From sequence record OL631482.1: a stretch of DNA of 64,000 nt; one strand, written 5' to 3'. The stretch's first letter is position 1; every line of letters begins with the position of its first letter. Positions 2,992-57,388 of this stretch are shown here, one piece after another. The notes beneath the pieces were generated by a model. It had not been told where the DNA came from and made no database searches. It saw nothing but the letters and a program-made list of their open reading frames with translations. Position numbers and translations under genes: made by a program. The DNA is from Escherichia phage ECML-359.

Positions 2992-4819
2992 GTGTCGCAT
3001 TCATCCAATCTTTACGCTGCTGGGAATCTTTACCGAAGAGCATTTCGAACAGTTCTTTCCAGTTGTCGGGCAATTGAACAACTTCGAATACAGGTTCGAG
3101 CAATACGCGTTTGTACTCAGCATCTTCCAGAGAACCAAGTCCCTTTATATATCTGATAGTATGCTTCGGAAGTTTATCCTTAGCTTCTTCATAATCAGGA
3201 AGAGAATAAAACCATTCTTGTTTATCTTTGAGCTGCGCAATAATAACAGGAGTTTTCACAAAGCGAATTCGTCCTTCATGGAACAGCTCTGGCCAGTTAC
3301 TGAAAAACGCCAATAACGATGGATAGATACTACCGACACCATCCACATCCGCATCTGTCATGATAGCAATGTTTCGGTAATTCATATTCTCGGCCGGTTG
3401 TCCAATCGTTAACCCAGTAATTGCACACACATCAAAGGCTTCGGCGTTCTTCATAACATCAACAGCTTTCAGGCCCCATGTGTTTTTAAACTTACCACGT
3501 AACGGATAAGCACCTTGCAATTCACGGTCGCGAACCTTGATAAATGGCCCGGTTGCAGAATCACCTTCGGTCAGGAACAGAGTCGTTTCCAGCTTATCAT
3601 TGCCCCATTCGTTGGCCTTGATATGCTTTTGCACCTTGGCCTTTGAAGCTTTCTTATTCGCCTTGGTCTCTGCTGCTTTCTCTGCAGCCAATTTACGGGC
3701 TAATGCAGCTTCAACAATCGGCATAATCAGCGGTTCATTTTTCAGAATAGCTTGCGCGATTTTCTTGGCATCAATCTTAATGTGATTTCGAATTTCACCA
3801 GCCGGAGAAGTCAATCGCTCCTTAGTCTGGGAATCAAATCGCATGTTGCTCATATCGCGAATGAACATAAGCATGGTGAGGCATTCCTTAACTCGTGCCT
3901 TTGTCACCTCAATGCCTTTATATTTGCGTTTAATGGCTGGCTGAAGATGTTCACAGATATCATCCATAACACATTCAACGTGGTGTCCACCATTCTTTGT
4001 ATGAATGTTGTTGACATAAGTCAACTGGCGGAAACCATCCGGGCTAGTCGTAAAGGCCATCGATACTGTATCAGTTTCCTGGATAACAACTTCGGTTCCG
4101 AATTGCTTGGCGAACTTCTTGAAATTGCCATCAACCTTTTTACCATTAAAGGTAAACTGAATATCTGGATAAACAACCGCAAGAGTCTGCAGACGGTCCA
4201 ATGTAATATCCAGATAAATCCGGGACAGGCTATTTTCTTCAAAGTGACTGAAGTCCGGAACAAAAATAACAGTTGTACCTTTACCCTTAGATTTCTTGGT
4301 AGACCAACCTTTGTTTTCCATACCATTGGAGCAGTTAACGGTGATTTCATTTGCGCCGTCGGCGGTAATCCCGGTGAACAATACAGAGAAAATATTGGTC
4401 AGAGAAGACCCGACGCCATTCATCCCACCAGTTTTACGTTCAGCATCATCACCGAAGTTACCACCTGCTTTTGGAATAGTCCATGCTGCAACCGGGCCAG
4501 GGATTTGTTCACCGTTTTGGTCTGTAACCATTGCTTGTGGAATACCACGGCCATTATCGGAAACCGAAATCTGATTATCTTTAATTTGGACATCAATTTT
4601 ATTGGCAAATTTAAAACTGGTGCGAATTGCTTCATCAACAGAGTTATCGATAATTTCATCAATCAGTTTTACAATACCAGGAACATAGCTTACGGACTTA
4701 TATTCACCAAACAAGAATCGCTCATGCGCTTCATTTGAACTGGAACCAATATACATCCCGGAACGTTTTTTGATATGCTCGACGTCCGAGAGTACTTTAA
4801 TTTCATTATTAATCATCAT
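2987..4819 (-). CDS. 39: DNA topoisomerase II large subunit (gp39 with gp60-equivalent region fused, 610 aa)
   Basis: GyrB-like ATPase/TOPRIM motifs (GMYIGSS, DNGRGIP); single uninterrupted ORF. Confidence 0.9.
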   Translation of the reverse strand: MMINNEIKVLSDVEHIKKRSGMYIGSSSNEAHERFLFGEYKSVSYVPGIVKLIDEIIDNSVDEAIRTSFKFANKIDVQIKDNQISVSDNGRGIPQAMVTDQNGEQIPGPVAAWTIPKAGGNFGDDAERKTGGMNGVGSSLTNIFSVLFTGITADGANEITVNCSNGMENKGWSTKKSKGKGTTVIFVPDFSHFEENSLSRIYLDITLDRLQTLAVVYPDIQFTFNGKKVDGNFKKFAKQFGTEVVIQETDTVSMAFTTSPDGFRQLTYVNNIHTKNGGHHVECVMDDICEHLQPAIKRKYKGIEVTKARVKECLTMLMFIRDMSNMRFDSQTKERLTSPAGEIRNHIKIDAKKIAQAILKNEPLIMPIVEAALARKLAAEKAAETKANKKASKAKVQKHIKANEWGNDKLETTLFLTEGDSATGPFIKVRDRELQGAYPLRGKFKNTWGLKAVDVMKNAEAFDVCAITGLTIGQPAENMNYRNIAIMTDADVDGVGSIYPSLLAFFSNWPELFHEGRIRFVKTPVIIAQLKDKQEWFYSLPDYEEAKDKLPKHTIRYIKGLGSLEDAEYKRVLLEPVFEVVQLPDNWKELFEMLFGKDSQQRKDWMNATL

Positions 4820-11472: not shown

Positions 11473-12087
11473 TTAGTTCAAAACAGTCAAATGCCAAACA
11501 GTATACAGGGTATTCAATGGGTGTGTTTCAATCAAGTCTACGCGGAGCGTAGTCCCAGCGGGAAACATAAACTCATCTTCATCATTAACCAGGTGCAAGT
11601 TTGACTTCCTGGTTGCTTCTGGATATGCACCATTGAACTCTTCAGGAGGAGCACCGCAAATCATTTTGAAGATTGCTTCCTGATAGTTATACGCATATGG
11701 TGCATTGTTTATACAGAAAATGTTCCTTGTGCCATAGAAACTGTATGATGCGAAATTTCTTGCAACTTGCCAGTCCCTGGAAAAACTCATTACACGATTG
11801 AATTCAATTGTTGCACCAACATATCTTAAATCTTCCAGGTATTCCATGGTTTTCTTTGATATACCACGGAACAATGCTGCCGGCGGTGCAGTATTCAGAT
11901 TGTTGCGGATAATCCTGGACAAGTCTTCTTGAATCAGGTCAGGTTTATTTTCCATACACTGCCAGAGTACTGATTGCTCATTATTTGTGTAAAGAGCATC
12001 AATCTCCGCTTGACATTGGTTACGAAAAGACTCACTAGAAGCGGCAGTGTCAATAATTCCATTCAAAACGTCATCAGTGTACAGCAT
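11473..12087 (-). CDS. modA: ModA-like ADP-ribosyltransferase
   Basis: R-S-E type motifs (FRGISKK, MSFSRD, EDEFMF); N-terminal ...STTDEDNK of track ORF is PeSL leader, start set to MLYTDDV. Confidence 0.6.
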   Translation of the reverse strand: MLYTDDVLNGIIDTAASSESFRNQCQAEIDALYTNNEQSVLWQCMENKPDLIQEDLSRIIRNNLNTAPPAALFRGISKKTMEYLEDLRYVGATIEFNRVMSFSRDWQVARNFASYSFYGTRNIFCINNAPYAYNYQEAIFKMICGAPPEEFNGAYPEATRKSNLHLVNDEDEFMFPAGTTLRVDLIETHPLNTLYTVWHLTVLN

Positions 12088-12149
12088 TTTATTATCCTCA
12101 TCAGTAGTTGATAGGAACATCTTAACGTGTCTTATTGCTCTTGTACACA
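12088..12149 (-). promoter_or_regulatory. PeSL-like early promoter cassette
   Basis: GTGTACAAG (overlaps modB 3' end) ... CTATCAACTACTGATGAGGATAAT leader. Confidence 0.55.
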
Positions 12150-12692
12150 GTCAAGAACATAATAATCATCAATAAATCCAGCATCAACTACCACGAATTT
12201 CTGGTCAACTGGAACAAACCATTCAAGCTCAGAATCAATCATGTCCATGTATTCTTCGCGCCTTAATGTAGCTGCCCGGGCGGAACCAGAAGCTGTATTG
12301 AAGAATTCCAGTGGAACGTCAAGCGCGATTTTGCGCATTGCATCATGGTAGCAAAAAGCTTTGGTCTGATTCAATCTGACGATAGTCCTAGTCACATATT
12401 CCATTGCAGCAAAATCCCTGGCAATACCATAGTCTTCTGTAAAGGAGGTTACCCGTCCAAATTCAAAAGGTTGCATTGATTCTTTTGCTTCATCTAATAA
12501 ATCAATCTCTTGCTGGGTTACTCCGCGCCACAAGACTGTATCGGGTATAGACAACCTTGACTTGATGATTGAGTTGACATTTGAATGCAAGGTCTTATCA
12601 ACCTTTGATGTGCGGCATTCAAATAATGAAGCTATCTCCATTTCACTAAATTTTAACTGGTTGGGTTCGGTATCAGATTTGATGATGTTCAT
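12132..12692 (-). CDS. modB: ModB-like ADP-ribosyltransferase (186 aa)
   Basis: R-S-E motifs (WRGVTQQ, TSFTED, ELEWFVP); paralog of modA in tandem. Confidence 0.6.
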   Translation of the reverse strand: MNIIKSDTEPNQLKFSEMEIASLFECRTSKVDKTLHSNVNSIIKSRLSIPDTVLWRGVTQQEIDLLDEAKESMQPFEFGRVTSFTEDYGIARDFAAMEYVTRTIVRLNQTKAFCYHDAMRKIALDVPLEFFNTASGSARAATLRREEYMDMIDSELEWFVPVDQKFVVVDAGFIDDYYVLDCVQEQ

Positions 12693-52395: not shown

Positions 52396-52466
52396 AAAGG
52401 ACTCCTTATTGTTGGTCATGATTACGCTTTGCAGCCTTAACATAGCGGAATACTAGTTAGTAACTG

Positions 52467-52474
52467 TATTTATA
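52467..52474 (-). promoter_or_regulatory. late promoter TATAAATA upstream of rI
   Basis: Exact octamer on minus strand. Confidence 0.5.
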
Positions 52475-52745
52475 ATCTTTTAAATTTGAAACAATACATT
52501 GCAAATAAATCAGAAAAATGTCTATCAACCCATATTCTTTGCACTGGACTAGTAACAGTCAGCATATAATGTGATTTTTGTAAATTTATTCCATTTTTAT
52601 TCGGGCATTCTTTATTAACAGAATGGTACGTGCTTGCTACTATTTCAATTTCCCTTTCATATCTCTCGCTATCTGTTTGTGTGGGAATAAATGCAATTCC
52701 AGCAATAACAAAAATAGAGATATACGTCCAAACCTTGTATACCAT
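52470..52745 (-). CDS. membrane-anchored small protein (91 aa, rI.1 position)
   Basis: N-terminal TM helix YISIFVIAGIAFIP. Confidence 0.4.
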   Translation of the reverse strand: MVYKVWTYISIFVIAGIAFIPTQTDSERYEREIEIVASTYHSVNKECPNKNGINLQKSHYMLTVTSPVQRIWVDRHFSDLFAMYCFKFKRL

Positions 52746-52752
52746 GCGAACC

Positions 52753-53325
52753 TCAGCTTGTTAATTCGAGCCAATGTTTTCTGCATAAAGATACGTACGA
52801 TTCATTCCCACCGACTAACACTTGCTCGCCGTCCTTTACAGCAGCACCGTCGATTACTCTCGCGGTCATGGTTGCTTTCCGGCCGCAATGACAGACGCCC
52901 TTTAATTCAACCAGTTTATCCGAAATAGCCAGAAGTCTGGCTGAACCGGGAAATAATTGACCCCGAAAATCTGTTCTTAACCCGTAACACATAACGGGGA
53001 TATTGTAATTATCAACCACTTGAGCTAACTGGTCAATTTGCTCTGGTAACAAAAATTGAGCTTCATCGACCAGGACACAATGGATATCCTTTTGAGACTC
53101 GGCCCATTTATAGAATTCAAACAGGTTCATGTCGGCCGTTACCAGGTTTGCTTCCTGGCTAATACCAATACGTGATTTGATTTCAGATTCCGAGTCCCTA
53201 TTATCAATAACAGGTTTTAGCAAAAGCACACTCATTCCACGCTCTTTATAGGAATAAGCTGCAGTCAGCAATGAAGCTGTTTTGCCTGCATTCATTGCTG
53301 CGTAATGATAAATTAAACTCGCCAT
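52753..53325 (-). CDS. tk: thymidine kinase (190 aa)
   Basis: P-loop NAGKTASLL, Walker B VLVDEAQF, C-terminal zinc motif CHCGRKAT...C. Confidence 0.85.
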   Translation of the reverse strand: MASLIYHYAAMNAGKTASLLTAAYSYKERGMSVLLLKPVIDNRDSESEIKSRIGISQEANLVTADMNLFEFYKWAESQKDIHCVLVDEAQFLLPEQIDQLAQVVDNYNIPVMCYGLRTDFRGQLFPGSARLLAISDKLVELKGVCHCGRKATMTARVIDGAAVKDGEQVLVGGNESYVSLCRKHWLELTS

Positions 53326-53334
53326 ATCACCTTC

Positions 53335-53520
53335 TTAAAGCGTATTCACATAAGCTATTAATTCGTTTTCTTTCGCATCAAATCGATTAGCAAATTCTTC
53401 CTGATGGTCGGCATCTATCGGGCCATATTCATCGTAAAAAGCGTTTGCTTCTGTATGCTCATCCAAAAGCTCATGGATAAGCTCAAACAATCTACTTTTC
53501 TGACTAATACTTAAACTCAT
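53335..53520 (-). CDS. hypothetical protein (61 aa)
   Basis: Minus ORF. Confidence 0.35.
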   Translation of the reverse strand: MSLSISQKSRLFELIHELLDEHTEANAFYDEYGPIDADHQEEFANRFDAKENELIAYVNTL

Positions 53521-53723
53521 TTCGGTTCACCATATCGCACAAATTTAGGATGTTCGCAATAACCAGAATGAAAACCTTCACCCTTATGATTAGAACATCC
53601 TTTATTAGAACAGTACCACCAGTAATCAAATTCACATTCCATTTCGTCGTTGCATAAAGCTGCGATTACTGGCCATTCGCATTTTTCACATTTGGCCGTT
53701 TTAAGAATTCGGGCTTGACTCAT
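53517..53723 (-). CDS. Cys-rich small protein (68 aa)
   Basis: Multiple CxxC-like pairs. Confidence 0.4.
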   Translation of the reverse strand: MSQARILKTAKCEKCEWPVIAALCNDEMECEFDYWWYCSNKGCSNHKGEGFHSGYCEHPKFVRYGEPK

Positions 53724-53882
53724 AATTCAATTCCATCCATAGCCAAAATTCTTTTTCGTTGGGTCTTGAGAGCTTCGTTAGCCCGGTCATAATCTTCTTG
53801 ACTACCGCTAGGCTGTAAAGCCGCTACCTTTTTGGCCAAGTGAATAAGCTTATCCAAGTTTTCAACAATACGTTCTTGTTCT

Positions 53883-54347
53883 TCATTCAGGCTCATAATC
53901 CACCACTATTAAATCAATATCAGGAGTAAACATGTCGATTAATTTAGAAACCTTTTCCCAATCTCCACCTGCAATACCACAACCAATGCGAGGAATGTAA
54001 ATTACCGGTTTAAACAAAAGGGTTTCTGCTTGTAGATTTAATTCTATCATACAGTTTACTAAAGCACCATAATCAAGATTAGGACCTGGTTCATATTGAG
54101 TATACAAATTATAACACATACCAAACCCAGTAGGTTTATGTTTAAAAACAATAGACATATCGCCTAATTTATCACGAGAACCATATTCAGTAGTGGTTTT
54201 ATCTATTTCTAAAACTTTTGGATAAGCCTTCGCCAACTGTCCAGCTACACCAGAACCCATTGTGTGGAAGCAGTTGCAACCATGAGCAATAATATTGCCT
54301 TGAAGAAAGAGGGCGACGATATCGCCCTTAATATACTGGGTAATCAT
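53883..54347 (-). CDS. macro-domain protein (154 aa)
   Basis: GDIVALF...HGCNC...GSGVAG and PRIGCGIAGG match macro-domain phosphate-binding loops. Confidence 0.6.
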   Translation of the reverse strand: MITQYIKGDIVALFLQGNIIAHGCNCFHTMGSGVAGQLAKAYPKVLEIDKTTTEYGSRDKLGDMSIVFKHKPTGFGMCYNLYTQYEPGPNLDYGALVNCMIELNLQAETLLFKPVIYIPRIGCGIAGGDWEKVSKLIDMFTPDIDLIVVDYEPE

Positions 54348-54703
54348 TTAGAGTTCAATCCTCTATTATATGAATCCACTAACCTGTCAACCATACTGGT
54401 GCAGGCCGCCTTATATTTTGCACTTGAAAGAATGCAATCCATTTCAAATAATTTCTTTTCATATTTGTTGGATAATACATTCTTTTTCAAAAGTGTATGT
54501 TCAACATCATTTTGGCCATCTTTATATGCCGCGGTGAGCTTGGCACTGAACTGGATTATACAATCCACATTGCTTGCTGCGCAATAATCTTTAGCCGTCC
54601 TCGTTGCATATTCTATGATGCTGTTGTTGTCGTCGCTCTGTACTGAAGCTATTCCTCCCATGCTGAATACTAACCCTATGGCTAAAGTGATAACTCTTAC
54701 CAT
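54344..54703 (-). CDS. secreted Cys-containing protein (119 aa)
   Basis: Signal peptide MVRVITLAIGLVFSMGGIASV; 4 Cys; coupled to neighbours. Confidence 0.45.
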   Translation of the reverse strand: MVRVITLAIGLVFSMGGIASVQSDDNNSIIEYATRTAKDYCAASNVDCIIQFSAKLTAAYKDGQNDVEHTLLKKNVLSNKYEKKLFEMDCILSSAKYKAACTSMVDRLVDSYNRGLNSK

Positions 54704-54705
54704 TT

Positions 54706-55248
54706 TTAATCCACCGTTTTTAATAGGCCTCGTGATTTTAAGTAGTTAGCTTTTTCTAGGACCTGTGAAGCATACGTATTACCAGCTTTCACATTCCATC
54801 CTGCGTTATATGATGATAGTGTTTTCCTTATATCCCCCTTATGAATATTCAACCAATATGAAAGCTCAATGTAAGCCCAGCGTGCACTGTTCTCTCTCTT
54901 GCTTATCATCTTGATTATTTCTTTATCTGTCATTGTCCACCCAACCTGTTTCACGCGTTCGCGCACGGTTGGAAGATAATTTTGGAATATACCATATGCG
55001 TGATGCTTATCTTTATTTAATCCAGTATTAATCCCAGCAGAACTCTCCTGCCAGGTTAAACCAGCCATGATATATCCCAAACCATTATGTTGGTGCGGAT
55101 TTTCTTTGTACTTACCATTTTTCTGGAACTGTTCTCCAAACGCATAAGCATATTGGAGGTTTTCCATTTGTTCATTACTGAAAGTAGGCTCTACGCTATG
55201 GGCAGACATACTAACTGTCAATAGTAAGGTGGCGATTACTTTTTTCAT
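54706..55248 (-). CDS. secreted SLT-domain lytic transglycosylase-like protein (180 aa)
   Basis: Signal peptide; catalytic ES, GIFQ and YNAG motifs of family-1 lytic transglycosylases. Confidence 0.6.
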   Translation of the reverse strand: MKKVIATLLLTVSMSAHSVEPTFSNEQMENLQYAYAFGEQFQKNGKYKENPHQHNGLGYIMAGLTWQESSAGINTGLNKDKHHAYGIFQNYLPTVRERVKQVGWTMTDKEIIKMISKRENSARWAYIELSYWLNIHKGDIRKTLSSYNAGWNVKAGNTYASQVLEKANYLKSRGLLKTVD

Positions 55249-55258
55249 GAATTCCCCA

Positions 55259-55717
55259 TTAGATATAAATCACTTTTGTGCTAATTTTTCCTTCCAGACG
55301 ATTAGAGTTAACAAACGCCATACGACAACACATGGTCGGAGACTTCCCAGGAATAGCGGGGTTAACTGTCATTCCTAACCACAGGTTCTTGTCTGTAATT
55401 TCCAGACGAAGTGGACGGTAGTTCACATTCGGGTCAATTTGTGCTTCAACTTCCGGGAGTGGTTTCATCTCCAAGAATTCAACGATTTCTTTTACATGTG
55501 GTGTGATTTTTCCAAACAAGTCAAAAACATATTGTTCATCAATTTCACGTTGGATTGCACGGTCCAACAGGTGCGGACTGTACTTAATGAAGAATGCTTC
55601 AAGGCCTGCTTCTTTACAAGCCTTGTTGATAGCATTATTAATTTTGAGGAACTCCGTTTCAAAAATGCGACGAAGTTTATTGCGGCGAATGTAAACACTT
55701 GAATCGATAGTAGTCAT
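55259..55717 (-). CDS. regB: RegB endoribonuclease (about 152 aa from MTTIDSS...)
   Basis: IRRNKLRR...HLLDRAIQREIDE resembles T4 RegB; track N-terminal extension is PeSL. Confidence 0.7.
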   Translation of the reverse strand: MTTIDSSVYIRRNKLRRIFETEFLKINNAINKACKEAGLEAFFIKYSPHLLDRAIQREIDEQYVFDLFGKITPHVKEIVEFLEMKPLPEVEAQIDPNVNYRPLRLEITDKNLWLGMTVNPAIPGKSPTMCCRMAFVNSNRLEGKISTKVIYI

Positions 55718-55773
55718 GATTATCTCCTTTTGTTTGATGGGATAATCATAACTCATTTCAATCTGCTTGTACA

Positions 55774-55775
<2 letters not shown>
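55718..55775 (-). promoter_or_regulatory. PeSL-like early promoter cassette
   Basis: GTGTACA ... ATCCCATCAAACAAAAGGAG. Confidence 0.5.
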
Positions 55776-56353
<578 letters not shown>

Positions 56354-56357
<4 letters not shown>

Positions 56358-56587
56358 TTCACTTCCTCATCAGATGCATTATCATATTCTACCAAACGGA
56401 GGCCATCATATCCGCCACGAACAGAGATATATGTACTCGGATAAACAATTTCTTTACCATTCCATTGGCCACCGTCCCAACATTCCATAAAGCCTTGTTC
56501 GCCCTGTTCGTGGAACCAGTCAACAAACATCTTCAGAGCTTCTTCAGAACCTTCAATAGTCAATTTAGACATATTTTTTCCAGTCAC
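56354..56587 (-). CDS. hypothetical protein (77 aa)
   Basis: Minus ORF. Confidence 0.4.
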
Positions 56588-56864
56588 TAATTAATCGCAC
56601 ATCCTGGTCATAGGTCAGGAGGCTACGAGTTATAATACCCTTACACGGTCCAGAAATAAATTCCAGAGTAAAGTAAGGAACCAACTTCATCAAGCGAATA
56701 CTCGGAGCAGTGCAACGAAATCTGGACCCAATAAAAGGTCCAGACAAAAACACATACTCAAAGAAATTAGCTTTATTAAAGATTTCATAATTCTTTACAA
56801 AATCCTCAGACCGAACCTTTGGAATAAAATAGAGTTGGTCAAAAAGCTCTTCATGGGTCATCAT
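56565..56864 (-). CDS. hypothetical protein (99 aa)
   Basis: Minus ORF. Confidence 0.4.
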   Translation of the reverse strand: MMTHEELFDQLYFIPKVRSEDFVKNYEIFNKANFFEYVFLSGPFIGSRFRCTAPSIRLMKLVPYFTLEFISGPCKGIITRSLLTYDQDVRLISDWKKYV

Positions 56865-57388
56865 TGCATTCCTATCACAAAGAACAGGGGCAGGGGTTTA
56901 GAACCCTGGCACATAAATTTATTCATCATTGTCTGATAAGCTTCATAGAACTTATCCATCGCTGGAAGACGCATTGGCTCTTCAATAATAATCAATAATC
57001 GGGTAACAGACAGCCCACGATACTTGTGAAAATGATCTTCATCTAAAAATGAACGAACAGTATCATATACAACAAAACCAGGTCGTTCAACATTAAGATG
57101 TGGCTGTGCTTTAGAAACCCGCTTTATTATATCACAGATTTCTCGTGAGCGATGCGAAGAACTCGACATAACAATTACATCATTACCCTTAGAAACCCAA
57201 TCCGCAGCGAACTGTGCAATGGCACTTGTTTTACCTGTTTGCCTTCCGCCGTCAAGTCTAAGAGTACCAAACTCTTGCATTCTTGAAGCGGGTTCATACC
57301 AGGTGTATTGGTCTGAATCTAAGCGTTCAATGGCGCGTTCAGCGAAGGCGTGCATTAAGGTTAGATAAATGGGAGTTAAAAATTTCAT
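56861..57388 (-). CDS. small P-loop NTPase-like protein (175 aa)
   Basis: Walker A GGRQTGKTS and Walker B-like LLIIIEE. Confidence 0.45.
   Translation of the reverse strand: MKFLTPIYLTLMHAFAERAIERLDSDQYTWYEPASRMQEFGTLRLDGGRQTGKTSAIAQFAADWVSKGNDVIVMSSSSHRSREICDIIKRVSKAQPHLNVERPGFVVYDTVRSFLDEDHFHKYRGLSVTRLLIIIEEPMRLPAMDKFYEAYQTMMNKFMCQGSKPLPLFFVIGMQ

Follow-up and report, generated by a model that had tools for sequence, protein, structure and literature searches.

The known product of the toxin DarT2 is thymidine-ADP-ribose (thymidine-ADPr) in DNA. Phage T4 keeps its resistance to DarTG2 in the absence of both adfA and adfN, and a further factor was predicted (2025, PMC11825919). On DarTG2 hosts, tk.4 was the single significant HIDEN-SEQ transposon match in T4, and a clean tk.4 knockout sensitised the phage to DarTG2; the gene, which is dispensable on plain E. 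coli K-12, was named adfM (anti-DarT factor, macrodomain), and enzymatic removal of ADP-ribose from DNA was proposed as what 'seems likely', without an assay (bioRxiv 10.1101/2025.11.20.689424). The A1pp ('phosphatase') motif of the tk.4 orthologs had already been remarked in 2006 (PMC1524935).

The name AdfM was given independently to T4 Tk.4 and to gp104 of phage PhiKZ. The latter removes ADP-ribose from DarT2-modified single-stranded DNA in vitro, and its N23A mutant shows reduced activity (Cell Rep 2026, PMC13309987). The macrodomain protein SCO6735 (PDB 5E3B) carries Gln85 at the position of the catalytic lysine of other macrodomains, cleaves DarT-made thymidine-ADPr DNA efficiently and rescues cells from DarT, and the Q85A and Q85E variants are inactive. 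In the mechanism proposed for this enzyme, the glutamine places the distal ribose, cleavage is started by a water on the Val25 backbone carbonyl, and an extended positive mobile loop (Lys89/Lys94) together with Lys34 is said to give its high activity on DNA (PMC9411070). In this work a gene of Escherichia phage ECML-359 (OL631482.1) is compared with these systems, the window being the whole stretch of 64,000 nucleotides that was analysed.

The tk.4 locus of a Gaprivervirus phage

The open reading frame at 53883-54347 is real and encodes a macrodomain. It lies in a row of genes that are all on the minus strand, in the order regB, vs.1, vs, tk.4, tk.3, tk.2, tk.1, tk, and are transcribed from high to low coordinates. 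The features around it are as follows.

55259-55774, minus strand: regB, first in the order regB-vs.1-vs-tk.4
54706-55248, minus strand: vs.1 (SLT-like), two genes upstream of tk.4; PHROG 600, E 2e-67, annotated in phage UPEC07 as SLT domain protein
54344-54703, minus strand: vs, valyl-tRNA synthetase modifier homolog, directly upstream of tk.4; PHROG 1256, E 1.3e-32
54344-54347, minus strand: ATGA shared by the end of vs (stop codon) and the beginning of tk.4 (start codon), read directly from the sequence
53883-54347, minus strand: tk.4 / adfM ortholog, stand-alone macrodomain protein of 154 aa (open reading frame, translation, Pfam Macro, AF2 fold, T4 synteny)
53883-53896, minus strand: 14 nt in which tk.3 begins before tk.4 has ended, from the sequence
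53720-53896, minus strand: tk.3, the true downstream neighbour of tk.4

The source phage is assigned to the T4-like genus Gaprivervirus: across 3.5 kb around tk.4 it shares 98.6% identity with Escherichia phages TH55 and UPEC07 of that genus, and a UPEC07 product already annotated as 'macro domain-containing protein' is 100% identical to the 154-aa protein. The order regB-vs.1-vs-tk.4-tk.3...tk is common to the window, T2 and T4 (it is annotated in T2 and T4), with vs in the matching position in both. T4 Tk.4 (155 aa) occupies the same slot between vs and tk.3 and aligns with the 154-aa protein over its full length (56.5% identity over 154 aligned positions; BLASTP E 2e-69), and every residue that is invariant in the family, Gln84 included, is common to both proteins. 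They differ in genus, T4 being a Tequatrovirus, and in loop 2, which reads GAGIGKGNW in T4 and GCGIAGGDW here. Synteny and alignment identify the window gene as the ortholog of T4 tk.4, that is, of a gene already known and named as an anti-defence factor. The first-pass annotation had suggested that the protein could counter DarT-like toxins, and the genetics of the T4 ortholog, both the HIDEN-SEQ match and the knockout (bioRxiv 10.1101/2025.11.20.689424), agree with this suggestion. Protection against DarTG2 was tested for the T4 protein only; at the above identity, a conserved function in the window protein is presumed.

It had also been claimed that the gene is co-transcribed and translationally coupled with two secreted proteins downstream. 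Coupling stands in part, as the ATGA overlap indicates translational coupling of tk.4 with vs; the direction has to be corrected, since all these genes are on the minus strand and vs and vs.1 are therefore upstream. Vs and Vs.1 have signal-peptide-like N-termini when read by eye, which is the sole basis for the word 'secreted'. In promoter and terminator scans of 52400-57000 the counts were no higher than in shuffled sequence, so that co-transcription is deduced from gene overlaps and synteny only; a late promoter (TATAAATA) was not found near tk.4. Searches of the window detected neither a second macrodomain nor tRNA genes, and tblastn with P. aeruginosa DarT2 detected no darT beside tk.4 or elsewhere in it.

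Macrodomain class and active site

Residues 22-136 are covered by the Pfam Macro profile (PF01661; positions 2-117 of its 118) with an E-value of 5.6e-8 and 33.2 bits, above the cut-off of 22, and the protein belongs with PHROG 335 (E 1.7e-70). From an alignment of 90 sequences an AF2 model was obtained with a mean pLDDT of 95.8 and a pTM of 0.90; the model and the motifs in the sequence together contain the three-layer alpha/beta/alpha macro fold, the GxG loop 1 and the glycine-rich diphosphate loop 2. Among 171 Foldseek matches in the PDB at E<=1e-3, the 50 listed are all macrodomain structures or designed hydrolases on a macrodomain scaffold. TARG1 comes first (E 4e-10, TM 0.74-0.81), followed by BT1257, Poa1p, DarG (of T. 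aquaticus and M. tuberculosis), SCO6735 and ALC1, with TM values of about 0.71-0.80 for the best matches to TARG1, BT1257, Poa1p, DarG and SCO6735. Ranks 1-25 consist mostly of TARG1, BT1257, DarG, SCO6735 and ALC1, the remainder being Poa1p and designed hydrolases; MacroD/YmdB and coronavirus Mac1 stand further down (TM 0.66-0.70 for YmdB and Mac1), and a profile search against the PDB gave the same order. Based on the model and on these searches, the protein is grouped with the ALC1/TARG1-like macrodomains and not with those of MacroD/YmdB, PARG or viral Mac1 type. The first-pass annotation had recognised both phosphate-binding loops of a macro domain, and they are present exactly, at residues 22-36 and 119-130, in a protein that scores above the Pfam cut-off; the macro fold expected from them is borne out by the AF2 model and by its Foldseek matches.

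By sequence, the closest solved relatives are BT1257 (E 9e-11), Poa1p and SCO6735, with DarG at 4e-5 and TARG1 at 2e-3; in profile searches BT1257 reaches 3e-19 and SCO6735 2e-16. The best NCBIfam match is the macro part of antitoxin_DarG (NF048014, DarG of type II toxin-antitoxin system DarTG2), at 30.7 bits against a cut-off of 250 and over model positions 3-148 of 338. The active-site elements are located as follows.

54240-54284, minus strand: loop 1, ADP-ribose-binding/catalytic, H22-G-C-N25-C...G31-S-G33-V-A35-G (HGCNCFHTMGSGVAG, residues 22-36), from the invariant residues and the alignments
54096-54110, minus strand: motif N80-L-Y82-T83-Q84, from ungapped profile alignments
53958-53993, minus strand: loop 2, diphosphate-binding, P119-R-I-G-C-G-I-A-G-G-D-W130 (PRIGCGIAGGDW, residues 119-130), from its similarity to the BT1257 and SCO6735 loops

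Residues H22, G23, N25, C26, G33, A35, N80, Y82, Gln84, P119 and W130 do not vary among the 90 phage and metagenome homologs, and the motif NxY[TS]Q is kept in 70/71 bacterial homologs. In profile alignments, on which all active-site equivalences given here rest, N80-L-Y-T-Q84 aligns ungapped with N-F-P-T-K80 of DarG and Y-L-I-T-K84 of TARG1, so that the column of Gln84 holds the catalytic lysine of DarG (K80) and of TARG1 (K84), the essential Gln85 of SCO6735 and a glutamine of BT1257; H22-G23 aligns with H24-V25 of SCO6735, and N25 falls in the column of N23 of PhiKZ AdfM. These alignments classify Tk.4 as a Gln-type (SCO6735/BT1257-like) macrodomain and not as a DarG-type one.

With SCO6735 of Streptomyces coelicolor and BT1257 of Bacteroides (2FG1/2AFC) the phage protein shares a stand-alone architecture of about 150 aa, the H-x-C-N loop, the glutamine in the catalytic-lysine column and a nearly identical loop 2 of the form PRIGCG[IL]AGGxW (PRIGCGLAGGKW in BT1257, PRIGCGLAGGTW in SCO6735). 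Identity to the window protein is only 27-30%, however, and both relatives have an insertion of 5-6 residues, relative to the Tk.4 profile, in the mobile loop that follows the glutamine. The DNA-holding Lys34, Lys89 and Lys94 of SCO6735 are absent from Tk.4, in which Ser32 stands in the Lys34 column and the loop after the glutamine reads Q-Y-E-P-G-P-N, with no lysine; the residue after the histidine is valine in SCO6735 and glycine in Tk.4. The change from lysine to glutamine was considered as a novelty in itself and rejected, given that Gln-dependent cleavage of thymidine-ADPr is already established by SCO6735.

The DarG macrodomain (M. tuberculosis 5M3I, T. aquaticus 5M31/5M3E) is of the same class and fold (TM about 0.75), and by analogy thymidine-linked ADP-ribose on single-stranded DNA would be the common substrate; it differs in that its catalytic Lys80 is replaced by Gln84 here (in the alignments to both DarG structures) and in its C-terminal DarT-binding domain, which is absent from the single-domain phage protein. 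Human TARG1/OARD1 (4J5R/4J5S), the top Foldseek match, also reverses the thymidine-ADPr made by DarT; in place of its catalytic dyad Lys84/Asp125 the phage protein has Gln84/Ala126. Having no counterpart of the lysine used by DarG and TARG1, Tk.4 cannot catalyse by the lysine route. PhiKZ gp104, like Tk.4, is a stand-alone phage macrodomain that counters DarTG2 and keeps the loop-1 asparagine. In contrast to Tk.4, it is truly DarG-like (E 9e-25 to M. tuberculosis DarG) and retains the FPTK motif with the DarG Lys80; BLASTP aligns only 33 of its residues with the window protein (E 1e-3), and it is imported into the phage nucleus (PMC13309987).

Substrates considered for the Tk.4 macrodomain

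Based on the genetics of T4, on the analogy with SCO6735 and on the in vitro activity of PhiKZ AdfM, a protein of another macro clade, the tk.4/AdfM ortholog probably hydrolyses the thymidine-ADPr that DarT2 makes on phage DNA by the Gln-type route, and in this way lets the phage escape DarTG2; both this hydrolysis by the window protein and the catalytic details that follow are what we infer from analogy. The macrodomain would be produced from a regB-vs.1-vs-tk.4 transcription unit. Infection would free DarT2, and thymidines in single-stranded phage DNA would become ADP-ribosylated. Loops 1 and 2 of the macrodomain would then bind the ADP-ribose on the DNA, Gln84 would orient the distal ribose in the manner of SCO6735, and a water molecule bound to main-chain atoms of the H22-G23 loop would start cleavage of the N-glycosidic bond. 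Release of the ADP-ribose would restore a replicable template, allowing the phage to escape the abortive defence exerted by DarTG2.

Some features of the family run against a DNA-directed activity of this kind. The longer mobile loop of SCO6735 and its DNA-binding Lys34 and Lys89 are missing in Tk.4, the closest bacterial homologs have no DarT nearby, so that the family has no specific link to this toxin, and in sequence Tk.4 resembles Poa1p as strongly as it does DarG.

Small soluble ADP-ribose derivatives, such as ADP-ribose-1''-phosphate, O-acetyl-ADP-ribose or ADPr-based immune signals or toxins, could instead be the main substrates, with an indirect or secondary DarTG2 phenotype. Among the nearest relatives of solved structure is yeast Poa1p (6LFQ-6LFU; 180 aa), an ADP-ribose-1''-phosphate phosphatase whose substrate is a small molecule that stems from tRNA splicing. 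The likeness lies in the N-terminal half, including the H-x-C-N-C loop, in which Poa1p H23 (mutated in 6LFS) aligns with H22; TM reaches 0.80, and the sequence match (E 1.5e-9) runs mainly over residues 4-78, a similarity from which activity is not inferable. The family is annotated accordingly: 'phosphatase / A1pp motif' is the label of the T4 protein and of PHROG 335, the A1pp motif also appears in the T4 RefSeq note, and the bacterial homologs lie in housekeeping-like contexts with no toxins. However, the 'phosphatase' label of the phage Tk.4 proteins stems from homology to Poa1p only and not from an assay; tk.4 was the single DarTG2-specific match in T4 and is not required on plain K-12; and SCO6735, with its Gln-type active site, acts directly on thymidine-ADPr. 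A role confined mainly to small molecules is therefore considered unlikely.

In another reading Tk.4 would mimic an antitoxin, neutralising DarT2 chiefly through contact with the toxin itself and not through cleavage of the modified DNA. This would be in line with the in vitro inhibition of DarT by each of the dead variants SCO6735 Q85A, DarG K80A and TARG1 K84A, strongest for SCO6735 (PMC9411070), and with the phage anti-DarT factors AdfA and AdfB, which act on or bind the toxin. Yet the active site (H22, N25, G33, Q84 and loop 2) is invariant across phages of very different hosts and across bacteria without a nearby DarT, which fits selection for catalysis and not for a particular protein-protein interface, and the C-terminal domain by which DarG binds DarT is missing from this protein of 154 aa with a single domain. 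Taken with this evidence, binding as the main mode of action is quite improbable, and hydrolysis of thymidine-ADPr remains the preferred reading.

The first-pass annotation had placed the macrodomain alongside two ADP-ribosyltransferases at 11473-12692, as an eraser that could tune phage-driven ADP-ribosylation or RNAylation. Both transferases are real:

12132-12692, minus strand: modA-like ADP-ribosyltransferase; PHROG 832, E 4.3e-28
11473-12120, minus strand: modB-like ADP-ribosyltransferase; PHROG 832 'RNA polymerase ADP-ribosylase', E 1.8e-38, and 99% identity to the annotated modB of phage EAWsc9

Their functional pairing with Tk.4 is not supported. The phage does encode ModA/ModB-like enzymes together with a macrodomain, and certain proteins are substrates of SCO6735 and TARG1 too (PMC9411070). 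Nevertheless, the mod genes lie 41 kb from tk.4 in a separate transcription unit, and the phage distributions differ: ModB-like proteins occur in 1012 phage records, with enterobacterial hosts throughout among the matches listed, against 2753 records for Tk.4-like macrodomains, which include phages of Pseudomonas, Vibrio, Acinetobacter, Aeromonas and Campylobacter, so that many Tk.4-bearing phage groups are not among the ModB-like matches. The T4 ADP-ribosyltransferases modify arginine, e.g. Arg265 of the RNA polymerase alpha subunit (PMC3102197), and arginine-ADPr is removed by ARH1/DraG-type enzymes, the TARG1 and MacroD macrodomains acting on acidic residues and nucleic acids (PMC8883491); this linkage is not known to be reversed by the enzyme class of Tk.4, and T4 tk.4 is dispensable on plain K-12. 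That Tk.4 erases or tunes the modifications made by Alt, ModA and ModB is considered very improbable.

Distribution and origin of the Tk.4 type

Of 50,700 phage records, about 2750 contain homologs of Tk.4, and a motif-based scan of species-representative bacterial genomes detected a Tk.4-type macrodomain in at least 506 of them. In the best 80 bacterial loci the gene is stand-alone and encodes 147-244 aa, mostly about 151 aa. Within 5 kb of these 80 loci tblastn found no DarT2 homolog (best E 0.88), and no conserved neighbour was detected among them; the largest neighbour cluster comprises 7 loci and looks like the shared gene order of related Ruegeria genomes. The one locus described in detail, from Pelagimonas, has housekeeping neighbours. 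A plasmid search for annotated relatives of DarG returned products named 'macro domain-containing', 'SLOG family' or hypothetical only, none of them labelled DarG.

An origin of the phage gene from an orphan DarG antitoxin was considered and rejected, as the 80 loci contain no DarT2 match and no conserved neighbour and their genes are stand-alone. From its sequence and contexts, the Tk.4 type looks like a recruited general-purpose Gln-type macrodomain and not like a detached DarG. It can be proposed, tentatively and with a little less than even confidence, that the AdfM clade of T-even phages was recruited separately, from the stand-alone macrodomains of Gln type that are widespread in bacteria, and that it reverses thymidine ADP-ribosylation of DNA without the lysine of DarG and TARG1 and without the DNA-clamping loop of SCO6735; the T4 and PhiKZ proteins named 'AdfM' would then be convergent and belong to different clades.

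The only new point of this analysis is the placement of the T-even AdfM in the Gln-type (SCO6735/BT1257-like) macrodomains, apart from the lysine type of DarG and from the AdfM of PhiKZ. It follows from this placement that the T-even proteins should be annotated neither as 'phosphatase' nor as a mimic of DarG, and should not be merged with their PhiKZ namesake. If the separate recruitment is true, the Tk.4 type might cover other ADPr adducts of DNA, RNA or protein that are produced by other defences. Altogether, a function is assigned to a conserved early gene of a T4-like phage, and its homologs may confer resistance to abortive defences of the DarTG2 type, which bears on phage host range and on phage therapy.

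Sequence features within tk.4

Two short elements on the minus strand lie within the macrodomain gene tk.4:

54310-54328, minus strand: GC-rich hairpin of 8 bp, AGGGCGAUAUCGUCGCCCU, followed by CUUUCUU
54041-54066, minus strand: MotA-box middle-promoter-like site, TGCTTTA, 13 nt and TAGAAT, within the tk.4 coding sequence

The hairpin is located about 20 nt past the tk.4 start codon, in the codons for KGDIVALF. It may have no significance, because the number of terminator-like sites around tk.4 (52400-57000) was at the level expected by chance. The MotA-box-like site is oriented toward tk.3-tk, and its pattern occurs 8 times in the whole window against 1.66 expected, with six of the occurrences on the minus strand. 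In phage SA35RD, a feature annotated as "promoter" lies under the gene homologous to tk.4.

Genes flanking tk.4

The following genes surround tk.4 in the same orientation:

53517-53723, minus strand: ORF in the tk.2 position, matching Pfam PF23895 "Phage zinc binding domain" (E 1.6e-29)
54344-54703, minus strand: vs, annotated as valyl-tRNA synthetase modifier (3887-4234 in the T4 comparison stretch, L003)
54706-55248, minus strand: vs.1, SLT-like (4227-4772 in L003)

The number of small ORFs from tk.4 to tk varies between the window, T2 and T4; tk.3 (58 aa) showed only a weak, sub-threshold Pfam match to SLATT_4. Read by eye, the N-termini of Vs (MVRVITLAIGLVFSMGGIAS, ending before VQ) and Vs.1 (MKKVIATLLLTVSMSAHS, before VE) resemble signal peptides, as does that of T4 Vs (MTKILVLCIGLISFSASASA, before DT). 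If Vs were exported, binding of a cytoplasmic synthetase would be hard to reconcile with it.

Macrodomain relatives of Tk.4

In the literature, the new name AdfM has been given to two phage macrodomains from unrelated clades, T4 Tk.4, which is of the Gln type and SCO6735/BT1257-like, and PhiKZ gp104, which is of the Lys type and DarG-like (E 9e-25 to Mycobacterium tuberculosis DarG). By BLASTP, just 33 residues of gp104 were aligned with the window Tk.4 ortholog.

In the plasmid search, Tk.4-like macrodomain matches (about 30% identity) were contained in genes annotated as "SLOG family protein" (H70-H77 and H95) on Bacillus thuringiensis or B. velezensis plasmids. This annotation suggests that macro-SLOG fusions or neighbours occur on large Bacillus plasmids.
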